Shown here in pieces: positions 2,655 to 19,428 of a DNA stretch of 20,000 nt. How positions within the stretch are numbered: position 1 is the first letter of the stretch; every line of letters starts with the position of its first letter. The position numbers and the translations under genes are program-made. The stretch comes from an uncultured virus (IMG/VR IMGVR_UViG_651053023_000007) (Duplodnaviria > Heunggongvirae > Uroviricota > Caudoviricetes), in IMG/VR virus record IMGVR_UViG_651053023_000007; one strand, 5' to 3'. Below the pieces are notes generated by a model. That model worked only from the letters and a program-made list of their open reading frames with translations, did no database searches and had not been told where the DNA came from.

Positions 2655-3849
2655 CGACGACAAAATCAGTCTGGTCATTGCCGGAAGGTCGCATTCTGAC
2701 TGGAGCAGTTACCGTATTGACAGTGATTTCCTGAAAGCTGCCGACGGCTGGCAGCTTCAGTTGGGACTGCCTGAAAAGGTGTTCCCGGCGGATATCGTCC
2801 GGGGTGCGCCAGTCCGGTTGCAGGTGGGAGACGAAACGGTGCTCAGTGGTCGCGTGGACAGCGTGCGCCGCAGTGTATCCCGTCAGAGCTGCACGCTGAC
2901 GCTGTCCGGGCGTGATGATGCCGCCATTCTGGTGGACTGTGCCGCGCCGGTGTTCAGCGCCAACCAGCTGACACTGGACGAGGTCATCGACAGGATAGTC
3001 AGACCGCTGGGGATACAGCGCATTCGTATTCAGGCGTCCGGTGTGTCACGTAATGACAAGGTCGTTATAGAGCCGGGGATGCGTGCGTGGGATGCACTGG
3101 CTAAAGCTGCCGCCGGTCGCGGCTTATGGCCGTGGTTTGAGCCTGACGGGACGCTGGTTGTGGGTGGCCCTGACTACACCACCACGCCGGTGGATACGCT
3201 GATTCTGAAGCTGGACGGCACCGGGAACAACGTGATGGAGCTGGATGATACCCGGTCCATTAACGGCTGCTTCTCCGAACTTACAGTGCTGGCACAGAGC
3301 CACGCCCGCCGCGCAGACAGCAAAAAGCAGCTGGCCACAGTGCCACTGGATATCTGGAACGAGGACGGCAGCGTGCGCACATTATCCGGGCGGGACGGCG
3401 GTAATACGGACAATGGCCAGACAGGCATTCATAACATGAAAGCTGTGGCCACCGACCCCACCGTGGATTATTACCGCCCGCAGATTATCACTCAGGGTGA
3501 CACCAGCAACCTGGAGCAGGTGAACTGGCGCGCCAAAAAAATGATGAGTGATGCCCGTCTGTCGGGGCTGGATATCGTCGCACTGGTTGCAGGTCATCGC
3601 ACGGCGGACGGTGTCCTGTGGCAGCCCGGCCAGCGTGTGCGGATTGTCAGCGAACCCCACGGCATCGACGCCATCTTTTTCCTGATGGGGCGTGAGTTCA
3701 GCGGAGGCCGTAACGGGAAGACAACCCGGCTCCGATTTAAGGAGGACGGCGTGTGGATACCTGACGCCTTCCCGCGCGAGAAGAAACGCCATCACCGCAG
3801 GGGCAAAAAGAAAAAAGAGGTCGCCATTGTTAAGGTCTGGGAGAAATGA
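2638..3849 (+). CDS. Baseplate hub protein (Mu gp44/P family)
   Basis: Motifs 'WSSYRIDSDFLKAADGWQL', 'LSGRDDAAILVDCAAP' and 'GHRTADGVLWQPGQRV', plus position between gp43 and the spike. Confidence 0.9.
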   Translation: MPTQNNDDKISLVIAGRSHSDWSSYRIDSDFLKAADGWQLQLGLPEKVFPADIVRGAPVRLQVGDETVLSGRVDSVRRSVSRQSCTLTLSGRDDAAILVDCAAPVFSANQLTLDEVIDRIVRPLGIQRIRIQASGVSRNDKVVIEPGMRAWDALAKAAAGRGLWPWFEPDGTLVVGGPDYTTTPVDTLILKLDGTGNNVMELDDTRSINGCFSELTVLAQSHARRADSKKQLATVPLDIWNEDGSVRTLSGRDGGNTDNGQTGIHNMKAVATDPTVDYYRPQIITQGDTSNLEQVNWRAKKMMSDARLSGLDIVALVAGHRTADGVLWQPGQRVRIVSEPHGIDAIFFLMGREFSGGRNGKTTRLRFKEDGVWIPDAFPREKKRHHRRGKKKKEVAIVKVWEK

Positions 3850-4499
3850 TGTGGGACAAAGTTAATCAGCGCGTACAGCAGGCACTGGCCGCCGTTCGCC
3901 AGGCATTCAGGGTGGTGACCGGTACGGTGGACAGTTCGACCAAAGTACAGTTGCTTCAGCTGAACGGGCTGGCAGGCGAACAGCTGGATGGTGCGGAGTA
4001 TTTCCAGCATTACGGCCTCACCACATCTCCGCCACCCGGCTCGATGGGTATTGCCGTTCCGCTGAACGGCAATACCTCCCATACCGTCGTCGTGGCCACA
4101 GAGCACGGCGCATATCGCCTGACGGAACTGAAACCCGGCGAGGTGGCCCTGTATACCGATGAAGGCGCGAAAATCGTACTGAAACGCGGGCGGGTTGTTG
4201 AAACGGACTGTGACGTTTACCGGGTGAAATGCAAACGCTATGAGGTTGAGGCAGAGGAAAGTGCCGCATTCACGACACCGTTACTGACGGCCAGCGATAA
4301 GCTGACGGTGGAAGGTAAAATCACCGGCAACGGTGGCATGGCCATCAGTGGGGGCAAGAAATACGCCGCCACCTTTGAAGGCAACATCAACCATGTGGGT
4401 GGTGTGATTACCTCCGTTGACGTCACCGTTAATGGCGTTAAAATCGGAACGCATAAACACGATACCCCTCACGGCATATCTGGTCTGCCGCATAATTAA
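3846..4499 (+). CDS. Baseplate spike protein (Mu gp45 / gpV family)
   Basis: 'EYFQHYGLTTSPPPG', 'YRLTELKPGEVALYTDEG' and C-terminal HxH metal-binding apex 'GTHKHDTPHG'. Confidence 0.92.
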   Translation: MMWDKVNQRVQQALAAVRQAFRVVTGTVDSSTKVQLLQLNGLAGEQLDGAEYFQHYGLTTSPPPGSMGIAVPLNGNTSHTVVVATEHGAYRLTELKPGEVALYTDEGAKIVLKRGRVVETDCDVYRVKCKRYEVEAEESAAFTTPLLTASDKLTVEGKITGNGGMAISGGKKYAATFEGNINHVGGVITSVDVTVNGVKIGTHKHDTPHGISGLPHN

Positions 4500-4558
4500 G
4501 TGCTGAACCCCCTCACCTGATTCTGACCTGTCCATGCTGCCAGACTGGCGGCATGGAC
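4500..4558 (+). promoter_or_regulatory. Candidate internal late promoter / hairpin over the gp46 start codon
   Basis: Only sizeable intergenic gap (53 bp) in the baseplate operon. No Shine-Dalgarno before ATG 4553. A -10-like CAGACT lies at 4541-4546. An inverted repeat 4530-4543/4545-4558 includes the ATG. Confidence 0.4.
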
Positions 4559-4903
4559 CAGACGATTTCACCTGCAACCGGCGACTACGAACGCCGCCGG
4601 ATTTATACACTCCATAACGCGGTTTATCTGCGACTGGCGACACCGCTTGGCAGTTACTGGGCGGATGCGTCGCTGGGGTCACGCCTGCACGAACTGAAGC
4701 GGGAAAAAGACGTTTCCCGTGTTCACAGGCTGGCGGCGCAGTATGCCAGCCAGGCACTTCAGCCCCTGCTTGATGACGGGCGGGCAAAATCCATTACCGT
4801 TGACACGAAAGCGGGCCAGCGCGGCTGGTTGTTGCTGTTAATCACTGTCACGGATAACGCGGGCACACCGCAGACGTTTGAACACCCTGTGAGGATTATG
4901 TAA
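4553..4903 (+). CDS. Baseplate protein Mu gp46 family
   Basis: 'NAVYLRLATPLGSYWAD..LGSRLHELKREK...AAQYASQALQPLLDDGRA' GP46 motif and position after the spike. Confidence 0.9.
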   Translation: MDQTISPATGDYERRRIYTLHNAVYLRLATPLGSYWADASLGSRLHELKREKDVSRVHRLAAQYASQALQPLLDDGRAKSITVDTKAGQRGWLLLLITVTDNAGTPQTFEHPVRIM

Positions 4904-5982
4904 TGCCGTTTCCTGTTCCGGGCGTTGCTGAAAACACAGAACGCCAGCTACGTGATATCGCTAACGCCCTGCCGGGAGAAACCATCGACACCGGCGCTGA
5001 CAGCGATTACCGCATTCGTGCAAATGCCGTATCCGGCGTGGCGGACGGGCTTTATATGCATCAGGGATGGATCCTCCGTCAGGTGTTTCCTGACACGGCA
5101 GACCCTGAATATCTGGAGCTGCACTGCCGTACGCGCAATGTTTTTCGTAAAAAAGCAACGGCCTCATCCGGTCCGGTAGTGATTACCGGCACACCCGGTA
5201 AGACGCTGCCAGCCGGTGCGGAAATTCGTGGTGAAGGTGTCAGCGTGACCACCACAGCAGACTGCACCGTCGGCGATGAAGGCAGTGCAGAGGTGACGGT
5301 AAAAAGCTCCGCCACGGGTGCACAGACGAACGCATCCGCAACGCAGACGGCAACGCTGGTCAGCCCGCCGGAAGGCATCAACAGCACGGTGACGATTAAA
5401 TCCCTGACCGGCGGAACGGACAGGGAAAGCGACGCCGACCTGCTGGCGCGTTATCTGGATATTCTGCGCAGGCCGCCCGCTGGCGGTAACAAATATGATT
5501 ACAAACGCTGGGCGCTGGAAGTGGATGGCGTTACGTCTGCGTATGTGGAGCCGTTGCGTCGTGGACTGGGGACGGTTGATGTGGCCATTACGTCAGCCAA
5601 TGACCTCCCTTCGCAGGAACTGATTAATGCCGTGCTGGCACATATTGAGGAAGTCCGCCCGGTCACAGCGAAAGACACGATGGTACTGGCCCCGACGAAA
5701 AAAGCCGTTGATTTCGTTGTCCGGGTAAAAACCAGCGGCCTGACCGTTGAGCAGATAAAACCGCAGATAACTGACGTTATCACGGATTTTATGAACCGGC
5801 TGGAGCCGGGGCAGGAATTAATTATTTCACAACTGGAAACCCAGATTTCATTAATTTCCGGTGTCAGTGACCGGCGAATCATTACGCCAGCAGACAATGT
5901 AAAAGCCATTATTAACGCGTCAACGTGGGAATGGCTGCGTCCGGGAAATATTGATATTCAGTCCTTTCCGCGTGAGGGGTGA
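4903..5982 (+). CDS. Baseplate wedge protein J / Mu gp47 family
   Basis: 'QVFPDTADPEYLELH', 'GGTDRESDADLLARYL...PPAGGNKYDYKRWALEVDGV' and 'RRGLGTVDV' Baseplate_J motifs. Confidence 0.93.
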   Translation: MPFPVPGVAENTERQLRDIANALPGETIDTGADSDYRIRANAVSGVADGLYMHQGWILRQVFPDTADPEYLELHCRTRNVFRKKATASSGPVVITGTPGKTLPAGAEIRGEGVSVTTTADCTVGDEGSAEVTVKSSATGAQTNASATQTATLVSPPEGINSTVTIKSLTGGTDRESDADLLARYLDILRRPPAGGNKYDYKRWALEVDGVTSAYVEPLRRGLGTVDVAITSANDLPSQELINAVLAHIEEVRPVTAKDTMVLAPTKKAVDFVVRVKTSGLTVEQIKPQITDVITDFMNRLEPGQELIISQLETQISLISGVSDRRIITPADNVKAIINASTWEWLRPGNIDIQSFPREG

Positions 5983-5985
5983 TTC

Positions 5986-6558
5986 ATGAATATGGTCGAT
6001 TTATTTCGCGCCATGCTGCCGCCTGTCAGTTATGACCAGAACGGAAAATATATTTCCGCAGAACTGATGGCCGAGGCTAACGTCATGGAGGCCGTGAAGG
6101 CATCAGCGGCGAGTGTTCTGGCACAAATCACCCCATTGCAGGCATCGATGACGCTGTCTGACTGGGAGCGCGTGTACGGTGTTGTCCCCCGTGAAGGTGC
6201 CACGCAACAGGAGAGGCGGCAGAACATCCAGGTCAGGATGGCTGCCACTGGCGGGCTGTCAATTCCTTACTTTAAGAGTCTTGCCGCCAGCCTGGGCTAC
6301 ACCATCACCATTACGGAGCCGCGAGCGTTCCGGGTGGGGATAAATCGCTGCGGTGACCGTCTGCTGATACCGGAAATCCGCTGGGTGTGGCAGGTCAATG
6401 TTATCGGGACAAAAACGCCGGTCTACCGTTTCAGAACGGGGGCATCGGCAACCGGCGAACCGCTGACGGCCTTTGGTGAATCCATTTTAGAAAACACGTT
6501 TAAAGACCTTAAACCGGCTTTTACAGACTGTTATTTCACATATGAGGTGGAGGAATAA
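5986..6558 (+). CDS. Baseplate wedge protein Mu gp48 / YmfQ (DUF2313) family
   Basis: 'LSDWERVYG', '[23 protein letters not shown]', '[12 protein letters not shown]' and 'LKPAFT' motifs. Follows the J-like gene. Confidence 0.9.
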
Positions 6559-7541
6559 TGCAGAATTTAATGCCTCCGGTGAATACGCCGGATAAGCTAT
6601 TTCATGATGGTGACCCCACTCAGGGAATTGAGGGAACCATCGTTTACGCCGAATATATGAATAATCATCAGGCGGCAACGCGCGATTTGCAGCAGGAGGT
6701 GATTAACGTCCTTAAAGAGGCTGGCGTAACCCCGGATCCGAAAAAACAGAATCAACTGGTTGAGGCGCTGGCCTTATATGTCGGGAAAAAAGTTCCTGAC
6801 GCATCATTAACGAAGAAGGGTATCGTTCAGCTCAGTAGTGCAACAGACAGTGATTCAGAAGAACTGGCTGCCACCCCAAAGGCAATAAAGGCGTTAGCAA
6901 AAAAAATTGCTGATTTACAGGGTACGGCTTTACCGGTCGGGACACCAATCCCGTGGCCATCTGATTCTGTGCCATCCGGTTATGCCTTAATGCAGGGGCA
7001 AAGTTTTGATAAAGGCTCTTACCCTAAACTTGCGGTTGCCTATCCGTCCGGGGTTATTCCTGATATGCGCGGCTGGACTATCAAGGGTAAGCCTGCCAGT
7101 GGTCGTGCCGTATTGTCTCAGGAACAGGATGGCATCAAGTCGCATACCCACAGTGCCAGTGCGTCAAATACCGATTTAGGAACGAAAACGACAAGTTCAT
7201 TTGACTACGGCACCAAGACAGTCAGCACGTTTAACCACGGCACAAAATCAACAAATAACACAGGAAATCATACGCACAGTGTCGGTGGTGTTTATGGCGG
7301 CGACTCTATCGGCGGAAAACAACGTGTGCAGGCGTCAGGGAGCAATCAGATTTCCAGTACTGCCGGAGCACATGCTCATACTGTCGATATTGGTCAGCAT
7401 AACCACACCGTAGGTATTGGTGCCCATGCACACACTGTGGCATTGGGTGCGCACGGGCACACCATCACGGTAAATCCAACAGGCAATACCGAAAACACCG
7501 TCAAAAACATTGCATATAACTATATTGTGAGGCTGGCATAA
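6558..7541 (+). CDS. Tail fibre 1: Mu gp49-type baseplate anchor, fibre repeat, collar domain and His-rich lambda Stf/T4 gp37-like tip
   Basis: N-term '[15 protein letters not shown]...MNNHQ'. Repeat '[29 protein letters not shown]'. Collar '[32 protein letters not shown]'. Repeated HxH motifs and terminal '[16 protein letters not shown]'. Confidence 0.92.
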
Positions 7542-8116
7542 TGACTTTCAAAATGAGTGCAGAAGCACAAACCATTCGTGTATTTAATTATCTCGATGGC
7601 ACAAATGAATTTATTGGCGAAAGCGACGCATATATTCCACCTCATACAGGTCTGCCAGCTAATTCAACAGATATTGCGCCTCCTGATATTCCGGCGGGTT
7701 TTGCTGCCGTGTTTAATGCTGATGAAATGAAATGGCATCTGATGGAAGACCACCGAGGGAAAACGGTTTATTCAACAGAAACCGGAGTAGCTGTAACAGT
7801 GTCTGAACTGGGAAGCCTTCCTGAAAATGTGACTTCTGTTTCTCCTGATGGCGAATACCAACGCTGGAATGGCAGTCAGTGGGTGACAGATGAAGAAGCC
7901 AGGCGTAATGCGCTGATAAATCAGGCGGCAGAGAAGAAAGCGGGTCTGCTTAAACAGATGGGAGAGCAAATCGCCGTTTTACAGGATGCCGTTGATTTTG
8001 GTGAAGCGACGCCAGAAGAACAGGAACAGCTGACAGCCCTCAGGAAATTACGAATAAAGTTAAATCGCATTCAACCGGAAAACGCGCCAGATATTGACTG
8101 GTCAGACTTTGAATAA
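7541..8116 (+). CDS. tfa: Tail fibre assembly chaperone, lambda Tfa-like (Caudo_TAP)
   Basis: 'MTFKMS...[43 protein letters not shown]' closely resembles the lambda Tfa N-terminus. C-term 'LQDAVD...AT.EE...APDIDW'. Coupled to the fibre gene by TAATG. Confidence 0.92.
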
Positions 8117-8123
8117 ATCAGAC

Positions 8124-8145
8124 AGCCGCCCGCAGGCGGCTTTTT
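8124..8145 (+). terminator. Rho-independent terminator
   Basis: AGCCGCC-CGCA-GGCGGCT stem-loop followed by a T run, 7 nt after the tfa stop. Confidence 0.75.
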
Positions 8146-8161
8146 ATCATTCAGAGGTTTT

Positions 8162-9778
8162 ATGTCTGTATTAATCTCAGGCGCGCTTATTAATGGCGCT
8201 GGCGTTCCGATGGCGGAATGCAAAATTTATTTAGATGCACTGGTTAATACCAGTGAGGTGGTCACTGAATCATTCGCGGTTATTGAAACCGATGCGGCGG
8301 GACAGTATGCCTTTGAAGCGCAAAAAGGCAAATACACCGTACACATCAAGCAAAAGAACGGCCCCAAGTGCTGCGTGGGTGATATCGCTGTATACGATGA
8401 CTCAAAGCCCGGCACACTGAATGATTTTCTGACCGCCCCCAATGAAGGCGACCTCAAACCCGACGTGGTGAAACGCTTTGAGGAAATGGTGGCGCAGGCG
8501 CAGCAGAGCGCGGAAGCGGCAGCGGAAAGCGAACGACAGGCCGGGCAACACGCAGCTGATGCGCAGAAGATTAAGGGTGATTGCCAGACGCTGGCAGATA
8601 ATGTTCAGCAGAATACAAATGCTGTGGAGGAAAACACGCAGCGCGTTGAACAGCTGGCCTCAGAAGTTGAGCTGAACGCCGGGCAGGTGCAGCAGGGCGT
8701 GCAGAATGTTACTGATGCGGTAAAAAAGGCGCAGCAGGCAGCAAAGAATTCTGCTGACAGTGCCACTGACTCAAAAAACAGTGCTGACAACGCCGCCCTG
8801 AGCGAACAGAACGCACAAAAACACGCGCAGAAAGCTGAACAACATGAGCAGCAGACTAAACAATATGCGCAGGATGCAGCGACCGCCGCAGAATCAGCAG
8901 AGAACGCCAAAGGCGAAATTGACGAAATTCTGGATGGCGGCTATCTCAAGATAAAAAACAACTTTCAGGAAATTGTTGATGCTGGCCCCTCAGCACTGGC
9001 TCAGGCCCAATGGAATTTACAGATTTCCGGGGTGAAAAATAAACAGGTAATTGCCACCCCTTATACATGGCCATCCAGAACTGAGTATGAACAAAGGGTG
9101 CATCTGCCACTCGCCGGGGCTTACGGATTTGGCTACACGTTTGAAGACAAAAGCCAGGGACGTATAAACCTTAGCGAAAGTTACACCGGCTCCTGGTGGT
9201 CACAGTGGGTAAAGCCGGGGCGTTATTACGTTACAACCAGTGATAAACAATATCTGACACCAGACGGGTACACGTACGGGGTTGTTGATGTGCTGTGGCT
9301 TAACGGTAACGCATATAATGACGCTTCGCAGGTTCTTAAAATACTGGCTTTTTACGATGGTGACGGATGCCTGCATATCGGCAAGCGCGTTGGTCAGAGC
9401 AACTGGTCAATAAGCTGGCGCAAGCTGACATCGCTCCCTGATGTCAGGGCCATGCTGTATTCATATATTTATAATAATTACAACAGAGAATGGCGTGACC
9501 CGGAGCTGGGAGGTTTAATTCTGGCGTCATACCAGGGAACCGCAGACGGCGACACAAATATAAAAGTATCCCGTGGTCAGACTTATCCCGGCTCACGACT
9601 TGCACCTGTGGCGATAGAATGCCAGTTCACTCCATCCGGTACGTATGCCGCAACACCGCGATTCCATATTACCGGCTGCAAGAGCAAATCACTCCCCGGA
9701 ACTTATATTTCACTGTCTGGAGCACCCACAACATACAGCGACCAGGCTTTTGTGGCGCTATTCATGAGGATTGCATGA
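8162..9778 (+). CDS. Tail fibre 2: lambda Stf-type N-terminal (Phage_tail_N) domain, coiled-coil stalk, variable C-terminus
   Basis: 'MSVLISGAL..GAGVPM...GDIAVYDDSKPGTLNDFL' resembles the lambda Stf N-terminus. Ala/Gln/Glu-rich heptad region follows. SD GAGG. Paralogue at 18025-19428. Confidence 0.88.
   Translation: MSVLISGALINGAGVPMAECKIYLDALVNTSEVVTESFAVIETDAAGQYAFEAQKGKYTVHIKQKNGPKCCVGDIAVYDDSKPGTLNDFLTAPNEGDLKPDVVKRFEEMVAQAQQSAEAAAESERQAGQHAADAQKIKGDCQTLADNVQQNTNAVEENTQRVEQLASEVELNAGQVQQGVQNVTDAVKKAQQAAKNSADSATDSKNSADNAALSEQNAQKHAQKAEQHEQQTKQYAQDAATAAESAENAKGEIDEILDGGYLKIKNNFQEIVDAGPSALAQAQWNLQISGVKNKQVIATPYTWPSRTEYEQRVHLPLAGAYGFGYTFEDKSQGRINLSESYTGSWWSQWVKPGRYYVTTSDKQYLTPDGYTYGVVDVLWLNGNAYNDASQVLKILAFYDGDGCLHIGKRVGQSNWSISWRKLTSLPDVRAMLYSYIYNNYNREWRDPELGGLILASYQGTADGDTNIKVSRGQTYPGSRLAPVAIECQFTPSGTYAATPRFHITGCKSKSLPGTYISLSGAPTTYSDQAFVALFMRIA
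8494..8661 (+). repeat. Direct repeat shared with 18357-18524 (identical blocks of 48 bp and 74 bp)
   Basis: Read by eye: 8494-8541 = 18357-18404 and 8588-8661 = 18451-18524. The offset 9863 is constant and equals the offset between the two start codons. Confidence 0.9.
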
Positions 9779-10347
9779 TGCAGATAAAAGAAATTACCAG
9801 CCCCCACTACACCGAATCCGGTGCGATTGACTGCGAAGTTTTATTTGAAGGGATGGATGAAGCCGTTCCGTACACAGCCACACCAGAAGACACAGCAACA
9901 ACAGGCCAGCAAATTTGGCAGGAACTGCAAAGCGGCAAATGGGGCGAGATTGCCCCGTTCACCGCATCACCTGAACTTATCGCAGCAGCAAAGGACGCCA
10001 AAAAACGGGAAATTGAGGCATGGCGCACAGAACAGGAAGCGCAGCCATTCACGTTCGAATGGAACGGCCGCACATGGAACGCTGGCCCCGACTCAATGGC
10101 CCGTCTTTATCCTGTGGTAATGGCTGCAAAATCTGATACGGCACGAACTGCCCTTGCGTGGGGTGACGCCGATAATCAACAGGTGAAACTGTCGATGCCG
10201 GAACTGGAAGAACTGGCAGCCGCGATGGCGCAGGCGCAGGTTGAGCGCAATGACGAGATTTATCAACGCCAGCGTGAGATGAAGGAGGAACTGAATAACC
10301 TGGATGATTTACGCTCAATCAGAGCGATGACGATTAGCAGCAGTTAG
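9778..10347 (+). CDS. DUF4376-type tail fibre assembly protein
   Basis: 'GAIDCEVLFEG...PYTATPED' N-terminus and 'EIEAWRTEQEAQPFTFEWNGRTWNAG...WGDADNQQV' C-terminal domain. Start placed at ATG 9778 (9775 also possible) from SD GAGGA at 9766-9770 and by analogy with paralogue 19428. Confidence 0.8.
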   Translation: MQIKEITSPHYTESGAIDCEVLFEGMDEAVPYTATPEDTATTGQQIWQELQSGKWGEIAPFTASPELIAAAKDAKKREIEAWRTEQEAQPFTFEWNGRTWNAGPDSMARLYPVVMAAKSDTARTALAWGDADNQQVKLSMPELEELAAAMAQAQVERNDEIYQRQREMKEELNNLDDLRSIRAMTISSS

Positions 10348-10351
10348 CGGT

Positions 10352-10429
10352 CAATTCTGGACTTTTTGGGCGCACCTGAACCGTCCAGAATTGCGCGTCA
10401 ATCAGTCCAGAAAAAAACGCGAAGTTACA
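10352..10429. repeat. Putative transposable-phage right end: three GTCCAGAA-core sites plus terminal CA
   Basis: CAATTCTGGAC at 10352-10362 (inverted), GTCCAGAATTG at 10383-10393, GTCCAGAAAAA from 10405 (22 bp after the previous copy), then ...GAAGTTACA ending at 10429. Confidence 0.75.
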
Positions 10430-10430
10430 G

Positions 10431-11507
10431 ATGATCAGCGACAGAGGTACGCTTATCGCGTACGGACGTTATCCCGACACCTTTTTACCAGACCAGACGG
10501 ACTCCGTTATCAAGGAAGTTATTCTGACGCTGGTTCTTGGGTTGACGCACGCACAAAACGTGGTGCTGGAAGTTGATCCGGACAGGGCCATTATTACTCA
10601 GGAAATCGGAGACAGACGCTATCTGCAACGAAAAAAGAATCTTTCGGATGTGGAAGACAAGGATGAGGCTGTTGAAAACCTCGGATTAAAACCCACGGTG
10701 GACAAGGCAAAAAATGCCGTTCAGCGTGATGGTGACACCATGACCGGGGAACTGAAAATCCGTGGTGTTAATGCGCTGAGGATTTTCAACGAGGCTTTTG
10801 GCCTGATTTTTCGTCGTTCAGAAGATTACCTGCACTTCATTCCCACGCAGGAAGACCATGGAGAAAATGGTGATATTGGCCCACTGCGGCCCATTTCCAT
10901 TAACCTGCGCCAGGGCGATGTGGTTATTGGTGACAGGATTGGCATCGGTAATGAGAACAATCTGGGTGAAAAATCACTCACGCTCTGTGATAGCAATACC
11001 GGTTTTAAGTGGGGCGGACGCGGTGTTATTAATGTGTTTGCAGAGGGACACAACGTCTTTCGTTTTACAAAAAACGGTGTGCTGGCATTAGAAAATCTCT
11101 CGACCGGCAATTTAAGAAAGTTCACGCTGTCGTGTGACAGTTCTTCCACGAAGAGTGCAAGATTTAATCTATGGGGAAATTCCTCAAGGCCTGTTGTTGC
11201 AGAGCTTGGTGATGATTCTGGCTGGCATTTTTACAGTCAGAGGAATACGGATAACAGCATAACGTTTGCCGTAAACGGGCAGATGGTTCCATCAAACTAC
11301 GGAAATTTTGATACCCGTTACCAGACCAGAACAGGTGGTGTGCAGGATGTGCGTCTGGGAGGTGCCATTGGTATTGGACGCGGAGGAAATGCGCCATCAG
11401 GTCATTTACTGAGTGGTGTTGATGGCGGTGAAAGTGTGGACTGGGCCAATGCACGCCCGGTGCAGGTTCTGATTAATGGTGTCTGGCGAAATGTAGCGAG
11501 TTTGTAA
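10431..11507 (+). pseudogene. Tail fibre 3 (P2 gpH-type anchor, Mu S-like distal part), N-terminally truncated
   Basis: Begins 'MISDRGTLIAYGRYPDTFLP...VVLEVDP', which corresponds to the second half of the gpH N-terminal (DUF3751) domain. In-frame stop at 10377-10379 and no clear SD. Distal part 'NALRIFNEAFGLIFRRSE...GENGDIGPLRP' and 'FNLWG..RPVVAELGDDSGWHFYSQRN' resembles Mu S/P2 H. Confidence 0.75.
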
Positions 11508-11509
11508 TC

Positions 11510-12055
11510 ATGATGCACTTAAAAAATCTTACGGCACAAAACCCTAAAACAATTGAGCAATACCAGCTGGCACGACAGCATAAATTTTTATTGTGGCTGT
11601 TCTCCGATGATGGTCAGGAATGGCACGAAGCCCAGGAAAAATTTCAGCCAGACACTCTGAAAGTTATTTATGTTGAAACTGGCGAAGTGGTCTGGGTCGG
11701 AAAAGACATCACCTCAATCTGCCCGGAAAATAAAAGTGTGATTGAGTTGCCGGATATTACCGCTAATCGTCGCATTGAGGCGTCGGGATACTGGTTCTAC
11801 CGCAATGATGAATTTGTTTTTGACTACAAACTTAAAGCGGAAGATGAGCGTGATGCACTGTTAAAACAGGTCAGCATCATGACCAGCGAATGGGAAAAAG
11901 ACCTGCTGCTGGGATTAATCAGTGACGAAGACAGGGAAAAGCTCAAAGCGTACCGCATTTACGCGAAATCGCTGCAGGCGATGGATTTCAGCGCTATTAC
12001 GGATAAGACCACTTACAACAATATTAGCTGGCCTGAGCAGCCACAAAATACCTGA
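11510..12055 (+). CDS. Tail fibre assembly chaperone (Mu gpU / P2 gpG-like)
   Basis: 'MMHLKNL...NPKTIEQYQL...WLFSDDGQEWHE...FQPDTLKVIY...ELPDITANRR' and C-terminal 'ISWPEQP'. Confidence 0.9.
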   Translation: MMHLKNLTAQNPKTIEQYQLARQHKFLLWLFSDDGQEWHEAQEKFQPDTLKVIYVETGEVVWVGKDITSICPENKSVIELPDITANRRIEASGYWFYRNDEFVFDYKLKAEDERDALLKQVSIMTSEWEKDLLLGLISDEDREKLKAYRIYAKSLQAMDFSAITDKTTYNNISWPEQPQNT

Positions 12056-12109: not shown

Positions 12110-13585
12110 ATGTCCGGATTACATGGTGTTGAAACCATTGAACTGACGACAGGCACGGTTGCCGTGCAAACCATCTCCACGGCAGTGATTGGCCTGGTGG
12201 GGACAGCGCCGGACGCCTCTGGTGGTGTGTGCGCTTCCGGCACAGCCGGTTCCTGGCTGCTGGGAACGGCGCTGGATTTCACGGCGAAACAGGAAGGTCG
12301 GGTCGGTAATAAGATTTCGGTTGTTGCCGTGGCTGCCACGGAACAAAACGCGCAGACAGTGGCCTCGCTGAAAGGTACGACCCTGACGATAACACTGGGG
12401 ACGGACGAACACAGCCAGGTTAACGCCACGGTGGATTGTGTGACTGAAGTGGTGAATGCGCTGGGGGATTCGCCTGTGACGGCGGCTGCCAGCACCCTGA
12501 ATGCAGGAGGCGCTGAAAATAAAGTGGTGTCGCCGTTCAGCCTGACGTTATCCGGCGGGGAAGATGAGGCGTTCCCGGTCAACACACCGGTGGTGGTGGC
12601 AGGGGCCATTACTCAGGCGGGGAAACTGGGCACAGCCGGAACATTATACCCGGCCCTGCGTGATATTTTTGACCAGACTGGTGCGCTGGTGATTGTGGTG
12701 CGCGCAGAAAGTAAAGCAAAGGCGAAAGAGGCCGAACAGCGTGCGGCGGTGATTCAGGCCATGGAGGCGCTGACAGAAAGTAAGGGCGTGACAGGCTATC
12801 AACCGCGCATCCTCATTGCCACGGGGTACAGTGAGGATGATGGCGTGGCAAAGGCGCTGGAAACGTATGCCGCGAAGTTGCGGGCTGTGGCCTATATTGA
12901 CTCGCCCTCAATGGCAACGCCGCAGGATGTGGTTCAGCGGCGCGCGTCATTTGGCGGACGTGTGGAGCTGCTGCGTCCGCGCGTGTCAGTGACGGATGAC
13001 AGCGGGCAAACGGTATTTCGTCCATATTCGGCTCGTGCTGCCGGGCTGCGTGCCCGTATTGATTATGAAAAAGGGTGGTGGTGGTCCAAATCAAACCAGG
13101 ACGTGATGAATATCACCGGTCTGGAGCAGGTGGATACGTTTATTCTCGGGGAGCAGAACTGCACGGCAAACCTGCTGAACATGGAAAATATCTCCACCAT
13201 TATTCGCCATGACGGTTTTAAACACTGGGGTAACCGTCTGTGCACATCCCACAGTCAGTGGCGCTTTGAACCGGTACGTCGCACTGCAGATGTGATTGAG
13301 GACAGTATCCAGGAGGCCATGTTGCCTTATGTCGATCGCCCGCTTGATCGGGATGTGGCAGACGACATTCTTGGCAGCATTAATGCCTATATGCGTCAGC
13401 TTAAAAATCTGGGTGCGATCCACGGTGGCAGCGCCTGGCTGAATGATGAACTGAATACAGCAGAAACCCTGGCGGCAGGGCAGTTGTATATCGATTATGA
13501 CTTTGGGCCGAAGTCACCACTGGAGCGCCTGACACTGCGGGCAATGATTAACAATAAACTGGCGCTGGAGGAACTGACGGTATGA
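12110..13585 (+). CDS. Contractile tail sheath protein (P2 FI / R-pyocin type) with an inserted domain
   Basis: 'LHGVETIE', 'TAVIGLVGTAPDA', 'AFPVNTPV', 'PRILIA.G', 'AAGLRARIDYEKGWWWSKSN', 'GFKHWGNR' and 'GQLYIDYDF.P..PLERL'. SD GGAG. Confidence 0.95.
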   Translation: MSGLHGVETIELTTGTVAVQTISTAVIGLVGTAPDASGGVCASGTAGSWLLGTALDFTAKQEGRVGNKISVVAVAATEQNAQTVASLKGTTLTITLGTDEHSQVNATVDCVTEVVNALGDSPVTAAASTLNAGGAENKVVSPFSLTLSGGEDEAFPVNTPVVVAGAITQAGKLGTAGTLYPALRDIFDQTGALVIVVRAESKAKAKEAEQRAAVIQAMEALTESKGVTGYQPRILIATGYSEDDGVAKALETYAAKLRAVAYIDSPSMATPQDVVQRRASFGGRVELLRPRVSVTDDSGQTVFRPYSARAAGLRARIDYEKGWWWSKSNQDVMNITGLEQVDTFILGEQNCTANLLNMENISTIIRHDGFKHWGNRLCTSHSQWRFEPVRRTADVIEDSIQEAMLPYVDRPLDRDVADDILGSINAYMRQLKNLGAIHGGSAWLNDELNTAETLAAGQLYIDYDFGPKSPLERLTLRAMINNKLALEELTV

Positions 13586-14100
13586 TTACGGGTGAAAAAA
13601 AACTGTTGCGTGCATGGGCGTTATTTCTTCCTGGCGGGATCCGCCTTCAGGGTGCGCATGAATACACGCCGCCTGCCATTAATATCACGACAGTGGATAT
13701 CAAAACCGGCGCAATGGATGCACCGGTGGCAGTGGATGACGGCATGGAAGCGCTGACCTGTTCGTTTAAGATTTATGGTTATGATGTTGCCATGCTTACG
13801 CTGCTGGGATTGCAGGCCGGGCTTTATTCGCCGGAGATTGTTGTGCGCCAGGCTTATCGGGTGGGAAATGCGACCAGCGGACAGGTGGAAACCCTGCAGG
13901 GGATGATCACCAGTATCACGCCGGATGCACGTCCGGCAACATCACAGGCAGAGGCTTCGGTGACAGTGGAAATGTCACTGAGTTATTACCGTCAGGCTGT
14001 CGATGGCCTGGAAACCATCTGCATTATTCCGGAGGAATTTGTACGTCGTATTAACGGCGTTAATGTTCTGTCGGATCTGAAAAAAATCATCCGGGTTTAA
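13582..14100 (+). CDS. Major tail tube protein (P2 FII type)
   Basis: 172 aa after the sheath, with 'TGAMDAPVAVDDGMEALTCSF' and 'LSYYR...RRINGVNVL' Phage_tube motifs. Confidence 0.9.
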   Translation: MITGEKKLLRAWALFLPGGIRLQGAHEYTPPAINITTVDIKTGAMDAPVAVDDGMEALTCSFKIYGYDVAMLTLLGLQAGLYSPEIVVRQAYRVGNATSGQVETLQGMITSITPDARPATSQAEASVTVEMSLSYYRQAVDGLETICIIPEEFVRRINGVNVLSDLKKIIRV

Positions 14101-14118
14101 TCCGGGGATCTGCCATTC

Positions 14119-14147
14119 AGGCGGCTCAGGCCGCCTTTTCTTTTTTT
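14119..14147 (+). terminator. Rho-independent terminator after the tube gene
   Basis: AGGCGGC-TCAG-GCCGCCT stem-loop followed by TTTCTTTTTTT, immediately before SD AGGAG of the next gene. Confidence 0.75.
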
Positions 14148-14158
14148 AGGAGATGCTT

Positions 14159-14461
14159 ATGTCGGAAAAAAACAGTGTTCCTGCCAGCTGCGTGGAAATT
14201 GTGTTATCCGTGCCGTATGTCACCGCATCAGGACAGACGATCACGCACGTCACCATGCGTGCGCCCACCGTCCGCGATCGTCTGTTGCATCGCCGGAGTA
14301 CCAAACCGGAAGCAGAGGCTGATCTGGATATGATTGCCGGTCTGTGCGGGATGGACGCGGCAGACATGATGAACATGGAAGCGTGTGATTACCTGGCCCT
14401 GGAGCGGCAGTTTAATGTTTTTTTGCTGCCGCCGGTCCGGCGGAAGAAGAAAACATCCTGA
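14159..14461 (+). CDS. Tail assembly chaperone (P2 gpE / FluMu gp41 family)
   Basis: 'VTMRAPTVRDRL...MIAGLCGM...DY..L' motif. ATG 14159 preferred over 14153 on SD (AGGAG 14148-14152) spacing. Confidence 0.88.
   Translation: MSEKNSVPASCVEIVLSVPYVTASGQTITHVTMRAPTVRDRLLHRRSTKPEAEADLDMIAGLCGMDAADMMNMEACDYLALERQFNVFLLPPVRRKKKTS
14419..14443 (+). other. Programmed -1 ribosomal frameshift signal (T TTT TTG plus downstream hairpin)
   Basis: Slippery heptamer T-TTT-TTG at 14419-14425, in phase with the gpE codons. GC stem CCGCCG/CGGCGG at 14429-14443. The -1 frame is open to 14598. Confidence 0.8.
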
Positions 14462-14598
14462 TGGCGATACGGCGTGCCGGAGTATGGTTCGGGTGGTCAC
14501 CCGGAGATGTGATGGCACTGCCGTATGAGGATTTTGTGGCAATAATGCTGGCAGAGGCGGAAGAGAGGAAGCAGTGTTATGGCAACGGTGGGCGATAA
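14425..14598 (+). CDS. GpE' frameshift extension (not in the ORF track)
   Basis: -1 frame translates AAAGPAEENILMAIRRAGVWFGWSPGDVMALPYEDFVAIMLAEAEERKQCYGNGGR*. 'FGWSPGDVMALP' matches the P2 gpE' F.W.P.E...M pattern. It fills the gap before the tape measure gene. Confidence 0.8.
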   Translation, partial: AAAGPAEEENILMAIRRAGVWFGWSPGDVMALPYEDFVAIMLAEAEERKQCYGNGGR

Positions 14599-16237
14599 CC
14601 TCAGAGCGAATATCCGGATCGGCGGCACTATTGACCCGTCGTGGAAAAAATCGACAGAGGGGCTGAAGCGAGGTCTGGCTGGTGCGACACAGGAAGTGGC
14701 ACGCCTGACGCGTCAGCAGGATGTACTGAAGCGAAAAATTCAGGCTGGCGTACTGGCAGGGCAGGATATTACCGATCTGCGAAAGCAGTATGAAAAGCTG
14801 AAACGGAAAATCAATGATGCTGCAGCGGAGCAGGAGCGATTTAATCGCCAGCTTGAACGGGCAGAGCGCCTGGAACGCTGGAAAGGACGGGCAGGGACAT
14901 TTCTTAAAACCGGACTCGGGCTCTCTGTTGGTTCCGGGCTGACGCTGGCAGCAGGTGCCAGCGCGGTACTGAACCGGAATTCGGAAACGGCAGAGCGGGC
15001 AGGGATAGCCCGGAGTTATGGGGTGGATTACGAAACCTATGCGGCGTGGGATTCACTGGGCCGTCAGATGGGGTTAAACGGCGAAAACATTGGTGATCTG
15101 TTTGAGGAATACCGGAACAAGGTTTTTGACGATGATAATGGTGCCACGGACAAAGGAGCCATTCAGGAGGTATTCGGTAAACTGGGGCTGAAAGCGGGCG
15201 TAATGGCCGGAAAAAACAACCAGGAACAGGTCGAATTTTTGTTTGATCGCTTACTGCAGGTGGAGAATGAGCAGCAGGCGGCGGGGATGGCAGATGCGCT
15301 GTTTGGGGGGGAGGCCAATAAAATTCTGACCTGGATGCGTCTGTCAGGAAAAACCTTCCGGGAGCTTATCAGTGAGCAGAAACGCTATAACCTGGTGACA
15401 AAAGAAGGGGCTGATGGCGCAGTTCAGGGGCATGTGGCGCTGTCAAATCTCCGTAATGTTTTGAGTTCTTCCATTGATGAAATCAGCGGACAACTGGGTA
15501 ATGAGCTTGCGCCACGTATCCAACAGGTGACGGATGATCTTGCGGCTTGGTTTAAGGAGGGTGGCCTTGAGAAGATTCAGGCATTTATCCTTGATGATGC
15601 CCTGCCGGCGTTGATCGATTTGTCCGAGTGGATGTGGAAATTCGGAAAAGTTCTTGCAGGAATAACGCAGAAAGCCATTGAGTGGGGGCTGGCGGATGAT
15701 TCGCGGGAGGACCGGCGAGAGGTGCTGGAATATCTGGCAAAAATGGGTTCGCCTGAGCTGGCGAGAGCGGTGGCGCAGAAAAACGGTCAGGGTGAATGGT
15801 TTGATGAACTGCTCAGGAAAAATCCGGAGCTGACGAAACAGGTTGTACAGGCTTATAAAGACACCCGCGGTTATCTCCCCTGGAACCATGACGATAAAAA
15901 GTTTGATGCATTTCTCGATCCTTTGCTGGGACCGAAGGAAGAACCTGATTTTGATGGGGCGAGGGAGCGTGTTCGCGCTGCCCGCGATCAACTACAGAAA
16001 ACTCGTCAGGAACCCGCATCGGGGGAGGCTGACCGCCTTTCAGCGCTTCAGCATACCCCCGGCAGTATCAGCCGGGTGGAAGTAAAACCCACGTATCAGA
16101 TACGGGCGGAATTTAACATCACCCAGAAGCCCGGCGAGGATGCCGGACAACTGGCAGACAGGGTAACGAAAAATCTGGGAGATATTAATTTTGGTCAGCG
16201 TTCCCGCATGACCGATGGTGATGCATTCTGGGGGTGA
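14579..16237 (+). CDS. Tail tape measure protein (552 aa)
   Basis: Position after E/E'. N-terminal 'IRIGGTIDPSW' then coiled coil and a Gly-rich hydrophobic stretch. C-terminal 'FNITQKPGEDAGQLADRV'. Confidence 0.88.
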   Translation: MATVGDNLRANIRIGGTIDPSWKKSTEGLKRGLAGATQEVARLTRQQDVLKRKIQAGVLAGQDITDLRKQYEKLKRKINDAAAEQERFNRQLERAERLERWKGRAGTFLKTGLGLSVGSGLTLAAGASAVLNRNSETAERAGIARSYGVDYETYAAWDSLGRQMGLNGENIGDLFEEYRNKVFDDDNGATDKGAIQEVFGKLGLKAGVMAGKNNQEQVEFLFDRLLQVENEQQAAGMADALFGGEANKILTWMRLSGKTFRELISEQKRYNLVTKEGADGAVQGHVALSNLRNVLSSSIDEISGQLGNELAPRIQQVTDDLAAWFKEGGLEKIQAFILDDALPALIDLSEWMWKFGKVLAGITQKAIEWGLADDSREDRREVLEYLAKMGSPELARAVAQKNGQGEWFDELLRKNPELTKQVVQAYKDTRGYLPWNHDDKKFDAFLDPLLGPKEEPDFDGARERVRAARDQLQKTRQEPASGEADRLSALQHTPGSISRVEVKPTYQIRAEFNITQKPGEDAGQLADRVTKNLGDINFGQRSRMTDGDAFWG

Positions 16238-16728
16238 ACATGGTGGATTTGCTGGGCTGGGGCGTAAACCGGCTTGAACGTGAAGCATGGGATGCGGTGG
16301 GTTCATTAACGGATGTCGCCTCCCGCGTCATGCTGTCGTTTGGTGAGTTTGAATTCAGTATTGATACGGCAGCCTATAACGCCATGAAGCGCACTATGGA
16401 ATGGCGATGGGATGAACAGCAGCTTATCGGAAAAAACGACCTGCTGCAGTATACCGGTAAGGGGGCCAGAACAATAACCCTTGAAGGCATGGTGCATGCG
16501 GGATTTCGTGACGGTGTGGGAATGGATGCCCTTGATACGCTGGTTCAGATGGTGGATGACAATCCGGCCCCGCAGTTACTGGTCTCAAGTACAGGCGATG
16601 TGATGGGGTATTTCGTGGCAACCGCCTATTCAGATAACACCACGTCCTTTCTTCCCGGCGGGGCGCCAAAGAACAAAACGTTCACACTGGAGCTGAAATA
16701 CTATGGCGAAAAACTGGCGGACCACTGA
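16234..16728 (+). CDS. P2 gpU-family tail tube initiator
   Basis: 'MLSFGEFEFSIDTAAY..MKR..EWRW..Q...G....LQYTG.G..TITLEG...FTLELKYY' GpU pattern. Confidence 0.9.
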   Translation: MNMVDLLGWGVNRLEREAWDAVGSLTDVASRVMLSFGEFEFSIDTAAYNAMKRTMEWRWDEQQLIGKNDLLQYTGKGARTITLEGMVHAGFRDGVGMDALDTLVQMVDDNPAPQLLVSSTGDVMGYFVATAYSDNTTSFLPGGAPKNKTFTLELKYYGEKLADH

Positions 16729-16921
16729 CGGCGATATGCTGGATGACATCTGTCAGAGACACTATGGCAGTGCCGGGCTTAACCAGTCACTGGCGGCGGT
16801 ACTGGAAGCCAATCCCGGGCTGGCTGACCTTGGTCCGGTCTATCCGTCGGGAGTGGAAATCGTGTTGCCGGACTGGGTATATGAACCGGAAGTGAAGGAG
16901 ACGTTTCAGTTATGGGACTGA
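16703..16921 (+). CDS. P2 gpX-family tail protein (LysM-like)
   Basis: 'TTDGDMLDDICQRHYG....VLEANPGLADLGPVYPSGVEIVLPD...QLWD'. Confidence 0.93.
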   Translation: MAKNWRTTDGDMLDDICQRHYGSAGLNQSLAAVLEANPGLADLGPVYPSGVEIVLPDWVYEPEVKETFQLWD

Positions 16922-18000
16922 ATGAATATCAGCCGGATTTCAGCCTGACAGCGGAAGGCCAGGATATCACGAAGGCCCTGAAACGGGGGCTGGCTGAACT
17001 GCGATATACCGATAATGGTGCAGCCACAAAGCGGTCCGATGAACTGATGATAACGCTGTTCAGCGAGACGCTGGCGTTACCACCGAAAGGCGCGGTGCTA
17101 ACGCTGGGACTGGGGTTCAACGGAAATCTGGTCAATAAAGGCAGTTTTACCGTCTGTCAGGTGGCAAGCGGTGGTCCTCCCCGCCGGCTCACCATTTATG
17201 CCACCGCAGCCCCCATGAATGCGTCAAAACATGGCGCAGACGTGACCGCACTGAAAACCCGGGCTTTCAGCGATATCACACTGGGCGACCTGGTGAACAC
17301 CATCGCCACTGAAAATAATCTGGTGGCGCGCGTCTCATCGGTGCTTGCTGATATTCATATCCCGTGGGTGATGCAGTCATCAGAATCTGATGCTGCCCTC
17401 TTGTCCCGCATTGCAGGTATGTACGGCGCCACCAGTAAACCGACCAATGGCTACTGGTTATTTCTGGAATACGGGGCATCACAGAGTACGGGGGGCAGAA
17501 ATGCGCCTGAGATAACCATTACACCGGGTATGGTATCAGACTGGGATTATCGTGAAGGTGAGCGACAGGGCGCTGCGGGTGGTGCGAAGGGGGATAAAAA
17601 GAGCGGGAAAGTTGGGGTCCGGTATTTTGATGCCCGTGACGGACGCACACGTGAAGTTAAAGTTGACGTGGAGTCAACAGATAAGCGGCATCCGTTTACC
17701 CAGCCTGACCAGGGCACCGCAAAACACTGTGCAGAGTCGAAGGTTAAACGTGTGCAGAAAGTCGGACGCCAGATGACGATAACGTTGCCCTGCAGGCCGG
17801 AACTGCTGAAAGCAGGGGCGGAGATGCGTTTTGTCACGCAGGGATTTGGTGTGCGTGAGGACCATCACTGGCAGGCTGAGTCTGTGGAGTTTTCACTGGT
17901 ACCGGGACAGGGATTTACGCTGAATCTGTCACTGACCACGGATATTTCTGCAAAGGGGAAAGCCAGTGGCAAGAAAAAAGGCGTCAATTATTTTGGTTAA
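16912..18000 (+). CDS. P2 gpD-family baseplate hub (late control D)
   Basis: 'PDFSLTAEGQDIT', 'LRYTDNG...SDEL.ITL', 'LPPKGAVLTLGLG...LVNKGSFTV' and 'QSSESDAALLSRIA'. Confidence 0.92.
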   Translation: MGLNEYQPDFSLTAEGQDITKALKRGLAELRYTDNGAATKRSDELMITLFSETLALPPKGAVLTLGLGFNGNLVNKGSFTVCQVASGGPPRRLTIYATAAPMNASKHGADVTALKTRAFSDITLGDLVNTIATENNLVARVSSVLADIHIPWVMQSSESDAALLSRIAGMYGATSKPTNGYWLFLEYGASQSTGGRNAPEITITPGMVSDWDYREGERQGAAGGAKGDKKSGKVGVRYFDARDGRTREVKVDVESTDKRHPFTQPDQGTAKHCAESKVKRVQKVGRQMTITLPCRPELLKAGAEMRFVTQGFGVREDHHWQAESVEFSLVPGQGFTLNLSLTTDISAKGKASGKKKGVNYFG

Positions 18001-18024: not shown

Positions 18025-19428
18025 ATGTCTGTATTAATTTCGGGTGTGCTGACGGATGGTGCGGGACTCCCCATGTCCGGATACCATATTATTCTGAAAG
18101 CCCGACAGAATACATCCGCAGTGGTCATGAGAACGGTGGCAACAGTGGTGACGGGGCCGGCAGGAGAATATGCATTTGAGGCTCAGACCGGAAGATATGA
18201 CGTTTATCTTCGGTCATGTATTGAAAGAGAATATTGTGTCGGTGATATTTCGGTTTACGACGATTCAAAGCACGGCACGCTGAACGACTTCCTGACCGCT
18301 CTCGATGAAGGCGACCTGAAGCCAGATGTTGTTAAGCGGTTCGAAGAACTGGTGGTGCAGGCGCAGCAGAGCGCGGAAGCGGCAGCGGAAAGCGAACGAC
18401 AGGCAGGGCAACATGCTGAAGCGGCAGCTCTGATAAAAGAGCAGGTTGAAACGCTGGCAGATAATGTTCAGCAGAATACAAATGCTGTGGAGGAAAACAC
18501 GCAGCGCGTTGAACAGCTGGCCTCGCAGGTTGAGGATACCGCCGAAGAAGTCAGGCAGGATGCTGAAGCCGCCAAACAGGCCGCATCCGATGCAGAGCAG
18601 GCCAGAGATGATATTGATGTTGCGTTATCTGCAACGCTGAAAACGGCGAATCACCTGTCAGAAATTGCAGCAGAGGGGGAAGATGCTCAGCAGGAATCCC
18701 GAGACAATCTGGGGTTGAAAAGTGCTGCAACGATGGATGTACAAACAGACATTTACAACCGAACTGAAGGTTGTGTGGCACTTCCGGGAGCTTTCGGTTA
18801 TGGCGCGTATCCCACACAACGTAAGGAGTTTGATAAATACGCGACATCAGCAACATTTGCTTCTTGGGTACAGACCACTCCCCCGGGGCGCTATCTTGTC
18901 GTTCAATATGGTGGCCCATATTCCAAGGACATTATAGAAGGGGTTGTTTTTAGCGGAGAGGTAGAGATAAAAATGCTGGAAACAGCAACGCATGAAAATC
19001 AAAACAGGCGCGATAAGTTTGTCATTTTTAACGGGGTTAATCAGGACGTGTATTGTTGTGAGGTCAGGGCGGACAGTACGAACATACGCTGGACATGCCT
19101 GAGTCAAAACTTAACCGCGATAGATGGTGCGAGATGGCTGTATAACATAGCTGGCCCGTGGTACGACGTACCATTCAGAGATGTGGCAGTTGGCGGCTTA
19201 ACTCAGGCCGCGTACCGTGCAGCAAATACTGATGAATATACGATAAAACGTGGTGACAGCGTAAGCGGCAGCACTCTGATTCCCTGCGCTGTTATAGTGT
19301 CGAATGACGGAGCACCACGGTATGTGCTGGATACTGGACGCCACTTTTCGGGAGCCTATGTCTCTCTGGGCAACAGCACTCAGGCGACCAGCGATTTTAT
19401 TTTCGGTCTGTTTGTGAGAGTTTCCTGA
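18025..19428 (+). CDS. Tail fibre 4: Phage_tail_N domain, coiled coil, variable C-terminus
   Basis: 'MSVLISGVLTDGAGLPM...ILKARQNTSAVV...GDISVYDDSKHGTLNDFL'. Paralogue of 8162-9778. SD AGGA. Confidence 0.88.
   Translation: MSVLISGVLTDGAGLPMSGYHIILKARQNTSAVVMRTVATVVTGPAGEYAFEAQTGRYDVYLRSCIEREYCVGDISVYDDSKHGTLNDFLTALDEGDLKPDVVKRFEELVVQAQQSAEAAAESERQAGQHAEAAALIKEQVETLADNVQQNTNAVEENTQRVEQLASQVEDTAEEVRQDAEAAKQAASDAEQARDDIDVALSATLKTANHLSEIAAEGEDAQQESRDNLGLKSAATMDVQTDIYNRTEGCVALPGAFGYGAYPTQRKEFDKYATSATFASWVQTTPPGRYLVVQYGGPYSKDIIEGVVFSGEVEIKMLETATHENQNRRDKFVIFNGVNQDVYCCEVRADSTNIRWTCLSQNLTAIDGARWLYNIAGPWYDVPFRDVAVGGLTQAAYRAANTDEYTIKRGDSVSGSTLIPCAVIVSNDGAPRYVLDTGRHFSGAYVSLGNSTQATSDFIFGLFVRVS

Follow-up and report, generated by a model that had tools for sequence, protein, structure and literature searches.

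The ends of phage Mu carry a CGAAA-type repeat which, in the sequence used here for comparison (NC_000929.1), lies at positions 21, 126 and 166 of the left end and at positions 21, 43 and, inverted, 57 of the right end. Transposable prophages are recognised by their flanking scars, which measure 5 bp in Mu and 6 bp in B3 (PMC8705779). Six of ten copies of Mu-like phages in 13 closed genomes are located within mobile elements and several Stx phages bear insertions of Mu-like phages (PMC10132054), so that the insertion of one phage into another is already in print. The entry of a Mu-like phage into a prophage is thus a known and published kind of event. LC727881.1 annotates a duplication of 4 bp around an inserted Sp18-like Mu phage. 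No statement on a 4 bp duplication made by Mu-like phages was found in the papers searched, and the main text of PMC10132054 is silent on the length of the duplication.

The window analysed here is a stretch of 20,000 bp that is identical to the Escherichia coli chromosome record NZ_AGTD01000001.1 (no mismatches in 20,000 bases). It contains parts of two prophages, the host of both being a pig E. coli strain. Pfam searches with the open reading frames of the window reveal a tail module of the Mu type that directly adjoins a different one of the P2 type. At a probability of about 96%, the non-coding stretch at 10348–10429 is best read as the right end of a 37,086 bp Mu-like prophage that would have been inserted by DDE transposition into the gpH-type fibre gene of a resident prophage. 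A first-pass annotation of the sequence had already proposed the right end of a transposable phage inside the fibre gene of another phage, and the left end, the transposition genes, the empty site and the relatives of the element all agree with this proposal. The lineage of the element and its 4 bp scar are the only parts of the finding that may be new to the literature.

The non-coding stretch (attR, + strand) measures 82 bp when read directly from the sequence, and its outer limit is further defined by an alignment of eight right ends (A1) and by loose ends at 10429 in the sequencing runs X8, X11 and X13. It contains three copies of a short core. The inner, inverted copy (R3-like, − strand) at 10355–10362 reads TTCTGGAC on the + strand, while the middle (R2-like, 10383–10390) and terminal (R1-like, 10405–10412) copies read GTCCAGAA and are also on the + strand. 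The two direct copies are 22 bp apart, and the inner copy is part of an 11 bp perfect inverted match between caattctggac (10352–10362) and gtccagaattg (10383–10393), all of which had been correctly noted in the first-pass annotation. The stretch closes with ...CGCGAAGTTACA, placing GTTACA at 10429, and the sequence continues with GATGATCAGCGAC from 10430; GATGATCAGC stands directly after the GTTACA. The terminal CA of the element (10428–10429, + strand), likewise anticipated, is the probable cleavage point as judged from the sequence, the junctions and the right-end alignment. In the 20 kb window GTCCAGAA occurs three times when both strands are considered, each time inside the same 58 bp. The expected number is 0.49 per window, and three copies anywhere were reached in 3 of 200 shuffled sequences. 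In a 48 kb stretch that holds the whole element, five of the seven matches to GYCCAGAA fall in the two element ends.

The left end was taken from NZ_AGTD01000001.1, which is a shotgun assembly, because the provirus record itself starts inside the element. The 5' part that the fibre gene lacks in the window had been predicted to lie some tens of kilobases upstream and is found in NZ_AGTD01000001.1 at a distance of 37,086 bp, where it closes with ...CTGGGGATG and is followed by TGTGGGG. The annotation of this record has a 354 bp open reading frame for a phage tail protein ∼37 kb upstream of the right junction. The left junction reads ...ctggggatg/TGTGGGGTGGTGATCAATTCTGGAC and the right junction reads ...CGCGAAGTTACA/gatgatcagc. 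Strain ETEC1738 has the same resident prophage with an unbroken fibre gene of 449 codons that reads ...ctggggatgatcagc... The left flank (2,000 bp) aligns to positions 4005–6004 of the ETEC1738 locus and the right flank to positions 6001–8000, with identities of 99.95% and 99.85%, respectively, and the two flanks overlap by exactly 4 bp on this allele. The alignment defines an element of 37,086 bp with TG...CA termini and a 4 bp duplication of GATG, the right copy of which lies at 10430–10433 (+ strand). The prediction of a 5 bp target duplication, GATGA at 10430–10434, did not hold. A 5 bp duplication (GGATG/AGATG or GATGT/GATGA) was rejected in every framing, since none of the six informative insertions has a matching fifth base.

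The uninterrupted fibre allele occurs in other E. coli. Homology to such alleles had been expected to start at 10430, and among the matches listed all 29 non-self records start at query position 431, which is 10430 in the window. Homology to related prophages stops at 10429 in the relatives, again as expected. A search with 10330–10429 alone does not by itself show this limit, since its matches all end at the last base, where the query ended too. The joined sequence is present in only one of 5426 complete E. coli genomes, and the empty-site allele, the left end and the transposase were all found.

The insertion point lies after codon 92 of the fibre gene, inside the N-terminal fibre domain (residues 4–148 in the intact allele), in agreement with the earlier observation that the sequence after the CA resumes in the middle of a domain of a gpH-type fibre. 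The resident gene is thus split into a 5' part of 92 codons, whose reading frame continues for 25 codons within the element, and a 3' part of 358 codons (10431–11507, + strand), as judged from Pfam and the comparison with ETEC1738. The open reading frame of the 3' part starts at the duplicated internal Met-92 codon, and its match to the tail-collar fibre N-terminal family is confined to the final third. Downstream on the same strand are the tail-fibre assembly gene of the resident prophage (11510–12055, PF02413) and P2-type tail genes (12110–18000; Pfam and annotation) of the sheath, tube, E-type chaperone, gpU, gpX and gpD types, together with a 552-residue open reading frame at the tape-measure position. 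The resident prophage's own side-fibre-like and DUF4376 genes occupy 18025–20000 (+ strand; Pfam and comparison). The locus is a clean natural case in which a structural gene of one temperate phage is inactivated by a second such phage, with both junctions, the empty site and sister copies at other sites available for study.

The provirus record (G000, in which the window spans positions 25526–45525) is a chimera of the two prophages. Because its first base corresponds to a point 1,132 bp within the element, it is without the left end and the repressor gene, and it runs through the joint into the right part of the resident prophage, as far as the stop of the DUF4376 gene of the latter, next to potB. 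The exact joint at 10429/10430 allows both prophages in this record to be delimited correctly.

Counted from the outside, the left end has cores at 18–25 (TTCTGGAC), 92–99 (TTCTGGAT) and 143–150 (TTCTGGAC), all in a single orientation. The presence of TGT and of further cores at this end had been predicted and is borne out by the TGTGGGG tip and the cores at +18, +92 and +143. The right end, counted in the same way, has TTCTGGAC at 18–25 and 40–47 and the inverted copy at 68–75, so that the outermost cores of the two ends are equally far from their tips. The six sites have (A)TTCTGGAC in common, with weaker similarity in the flanking bases, and the positions of the cores are fixed in the alignments of seven elements.

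The parallel positions of the repeats indicate that the layout is that of Mu, while the recognition sequence differs. As in Mu, the termini are TG...CA, each end has three repeats and the element is ∼37 kb long. The distance between each tip and the first core is ∼20 bp (18 in the element, 21 in Mu), the pair in the right end is 22 bp apart with the third repeat inverted, and the repeats of the left end are spread over ∼150 bp in one orientation. Unlike in Mu, the core is TTCTGGAC rather than the CGAAA-type repeat, the target duplication is 4 bp rather than 5 bp, and the right end has no invertible G segment, gin or mom but instead has side-fibre-like and DUF4376 genes. On the basis of their position, repetition and conservation, the TTCTGGAC cores are putative transposase-binding sites. 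They differ from the repeats of Mu and of the Sp18-like phages and are candidates for the element's own binding motif, which the first-pass annotation had postulated.

A fibre switch based on an invertible segment (of the Gin/Hin/Cin kind) was rejected, since no serine invertase is found among the window open reading frames by Pfam or in the annotation; the repeats are moreover located at the tip of the element next to a target duplication. A 9-mer, TGCAAGCCT, is present 51–59 bp from the left tip (L003, 8208–8216) as well as at positions 84–92 of phage Mu, in both cases between the first and the second repeat. It falls within a block that is conserved in all seven left ends, and its sharing with Mu may be due to chance.

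The right-hand 10.4 kb of the Mu-like prophage (1–10429, + strand; Pfam and the annotation of NZ_AGTD01000001.1) contain the end of the tape-measure gene, a DNA-circularisation gene, baseplate genes of the gp44–48 type and two fibre modules, with Pfam matches to DNA_circ_N, GpP-like, Phage_Mu_Gp45, GP46, Baseplate_J, Phage_Mu_Gp48, fibre repeats and Caudo_TAP. The first fibre gene is adjoined by its assembly gene (Pfam, window open reading frames). The second-to-last gene (8162–9778, + strand) is side-tail-fibre-like with a prophage tail fibre N-terminal domain (PF08400, E = 9e-50), and the last gene (9775–10347, + strand; PF14301) encodes a DUF4376 protein and ends with a TAG stop at 10345–10347. 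A repressor, a Ner-like protein, a DDE transposase and an AAA ATPase had been predicted near the left end and all four are encoded there. Starting from the left, the order is repressor gene (Phage_CI_repr, on the opposite strand), Ner-like HTH gene (HTH_35), transposase and AAA ATPase, the same order of functions as beside the left end of Mu. The remaining gene set is also Mu-like, with Mor, lysis, terminase, DUF935, protease, gpT-type head, sheath, tape-measure and baseplate genes; the Mu-type late genes among these (Mor, DUF935 portal type, gpT-type head and Mu-type baseplate) are identified from the annotation and, for the part inside the window, from Pfam.

The transposase has 680 residues and scores above the cut-offs for both Mu-transpos_C (PF09299, 61.6 bits) and HTH_Tnp_Mu_1 (PF02316, 40.6 bits), while the catalytic core family rve is matched at 23.4 bits, below its curated cut-off of 32.6. 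BLASTP aligns it along its length to MuA with a sequence identity of only 22%, and both the GDG and the DN motif are matched. Two catalytic aspartates of MuA, numbered 269 and 336 in the alignment, are among the matched residues, and the third catalytic residue is left unaligned. The best match to the transposase in the phage collection is that of Pseudomonas phage VW-6B, with 48.7% identity. The ATPase matches AAA_22 (71.1 bits) and TniB and is 31% identical to MuB.

By analogy to phage Mu, the transposase would bind the six ∼22 bp sites and pair the two ends. The DNA would then be nicked 3' of the terminal CA and the 3' OH ends would be joined to target phosphates 4 bp rather than 5 bp apart, with the ATPase delivering the target DNA, again as in Mu. 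Filling of the gaps by repair or replication would result in the 4 bp duplication. The mechanism class of the Mu-like phages holds in that TG...CA ends, the Mu repeat layout, a Mu-domain transposase with a MuB-like ATPase and insertion into many unrelated sites are all found, and the duplication has a fixed length, although this is 4 bp and not 5 bp.

A search with the outermost 313 bp of the left end found matches in 12 of the 5426 genomes. All 12 matches start at base 1 or 2 of the query and adjoin differently annotated genes. Five of these and one further element from the right-end search were taken as relatives, which together with the copy in the window makes seven elements of 34.6–37.5 kb. 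The six relatives cover 80–86% of the element in the window at ∼94–95% identity. The seven targets are the fibre gene, tkt, another prophage, phnJ, an rhs gene, a plasmid methyltransferase gene and fliH. In the alignments, conservation runs from TG to CA and the flanks are unrelated. An exact 4 bp duplication is seen in six of the seven insertions (GATG, ATAT, CGAA, CCCT, TGTC and ATTG), and the terminal dinucleotide is CA in six of the seven copies and CT in one. Three copies of 35,237 bp that differ from each other in only 18–24 bases are located at three different sites, which points to recent movement.

Fourteen sequencing runs from seven studies contain 94–100% of the sampled words of window 10250–10610. 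Seven of these runs may be sources of this DNA, and four (X3, X8, X11 and X13) were examined. One contig of X3, a potential source, runs across the junction. X8 and X11, which are from two other studies, and the gut metagenome X13 contain a right end without any difference over 180 bp that gives way to other DNA directly after 10429. In these three runs the fibre part continues upstream of 10430, without a gap, into the uninterrupted fibre sequence. Both halves consequently occur apart in nature, with the break at exactly the predicted base. X8/X11 and X13 provide further flanks beyond the seven known targets. Three contigs of X13 reach 10429, and loose ends beyond this position are recorded for two of them with an agreement of only 0.7. 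This gut sample suggests that the element is present at more than one insertion site.

The stretch could be a true Mu-type end that belongs to a copy that no longer transposes or forms particles, the 82 bp then being a scar. The first fibre gene of the element is annotated as partial in NZ_AGTD01000001.1 (N-terminus missing, from 6807), and this copy may therefore not form infectious particles. Such ends can also persist as fossils, as is seen from a decayed relic of the same end in an O157:H7 genome. Against this, an ATG-started fibre open reading frame of 327 codons is open in the window at 6558–7541 and the fibre gene of a relative is about as long (987 bp), all six cores are intact, and the transposase and ATPase open reading frames have the same lengths as those in the relatives. 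The identical right end at other sites in the runs of three other studies likewise argues against a scar, and we consider a dead copy to be unlikely.

The relic is found in E. coli O157:H7 PV15-279 (L012, 41265–41493), the sole genome examined of the 577 that fall in the 60–80% identity band of the right-end search. It follows a DUF4376 pseudogene and lies beside a fragment of an ompW-family gene, on the margin of a lambdoid prophage. Decay has turned its cores into GCCCAGCA, GCCCCAAA and TTTCGGGT, yet it still closes with ...GTTACA, and its homology to the window stops exactly at 10429.

A very different origin would be a mosaic joint produced by recombination between prophages, in which the 82 bp are the conserved 3' untranslated tail of a side-fibre/DUF4376 cassette and the repeats form a hairpin or terminator. 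The coding part of the DUF4376 gene is indeed common to lambdoid phages, the match in the phage collection being confined to it (up to 10310), and the resident prophage's own DUF4376 copy is 83% identical. This similarity, however, stops within the coding region and the DNA downstream of the resident gene is unrelated to 10348–10429. Conversely, the conserved right-end block in the alignment comprises only about the last 85 bp and is retained irrespective of the upstream gene, three relatives with a different last gene having the same terminal 85 bp. The predicted RNA fold of the stretch is better than that of shuffled sequences (z = −3.17), but an inverted repeat gives such a fold anyway. No terminator-like site was found in 10000–10800, and the terminator reading was rejected for this reason. 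The joint moreover shows a precise 4 bp duplication and has both an empty site and a left end that matches it, and a mosaic origin is highly improbable. Still less credible is an erroneous assembly of two prophages with similar fibre genes, for which the shotgun nature of NZ_AGTD01000001.1 and the joint being seen in a single genome of 5426 might speak, since both junctions are base-precise with a duplication, the X3 contig spans the joint and the 14 runs mentioned above contain 94–100% of the sampled words, although seven of them are potential sources and, of the other seven, the three examined have the halves unjoined.

The Sp18-like Mu-like phages of Shiga-toxin-producing E. coli share the host species and the insertion into resident prophages with the element described here, and the repeats in the right end of the Sp18-like element of LC727881.1 agree with those of the present element in their 22 bp spacing and in their distance from the tip. 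Instead of TTCTGGAC the Sp18-like repeats have the core TTTGATAC(C), and the transposases are 44.8% identical. These differences in core and transposase set the element apart as a separate lineage with its own end specificity. Both the N-terminal DNA-binding domain and the C-terminal domain of the Mu type are present in the transposase here, in contrast to the B3 transposase, a Tn552-type enzyme without Mu domains. B3-type phages are similar in size (∼37–39 kb), in their use of many sites and in having a short flanking duplication, but this duplication is 6 bp long (PMC8705779). It is a tentative proposal, with slightly less than an even chance in our estimate, that the element represents an undescribed lineage of E. 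coli transposable phages with its own TTCTGGAC core, a transposase that is 22% identical to MuA and less than 49% identical to that of any phage searched, and 4 bp joining like Sp18. Among the papers listed on the prophages of the NZ_AGTD01000001.1 strain, none treats the element.

The point of wider reach is the combination of a 4 bp duplication with a Mu-domain transposase in two E. coli lineages, the present one and the Sp18-like phages. If the 4 bp stagger is real and general, the two would be natural comparators for what sets the spacing of strand transfer in Mu-type transpososomes, and programs that find prophage ends by scars of 5 or 6 bp would misplace them. The Sp18-like element in LC727881.1 (L016, 178–40145) is located in an Stx2c phage and its 4 bp duplication is also GATG; as deposited, one of its tips is TA and not TG.

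An exact scan with the terminal 23-mer against one genome per species gave no match. In the same kind of collection, a looser search, for a pair of GYCCAGAA cores at a spacing of 22 bp with GTTACA behind them, gave a single match, in a Sulfurimonadaceae metagenome-assembled genome (L018; contig JBNKJB010000003.1, 60465–60811), where both copies read TTTTGTCCAGAACT and ∼3.7 kb of contig remain on the inner side. With ∼0.3 chance matches expected by our own estimate, this could be the end of an unrelated element or a chance match.

Two of the relatives deserve separate mention. The copy in E. coli F163 (L007, 268–34834) has no duplication and its last base is T rather than A. It is bordered on one side by a truncated phnJ and on the other by a truncated ABC-type gene located upstream of phnM, a pattern that would fit a deletion next to the element, which looks like it extends from phnJ to phnL. 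In E. coli O166:H15 JNE21-009 (L006, 5535–40771) the sister element is inserted in another prophage, between the DNA-circularisation gene and a baseplate gene, with CGAA as its 4 bp duplication, and is a second case of a phage within a phage in this lineage.
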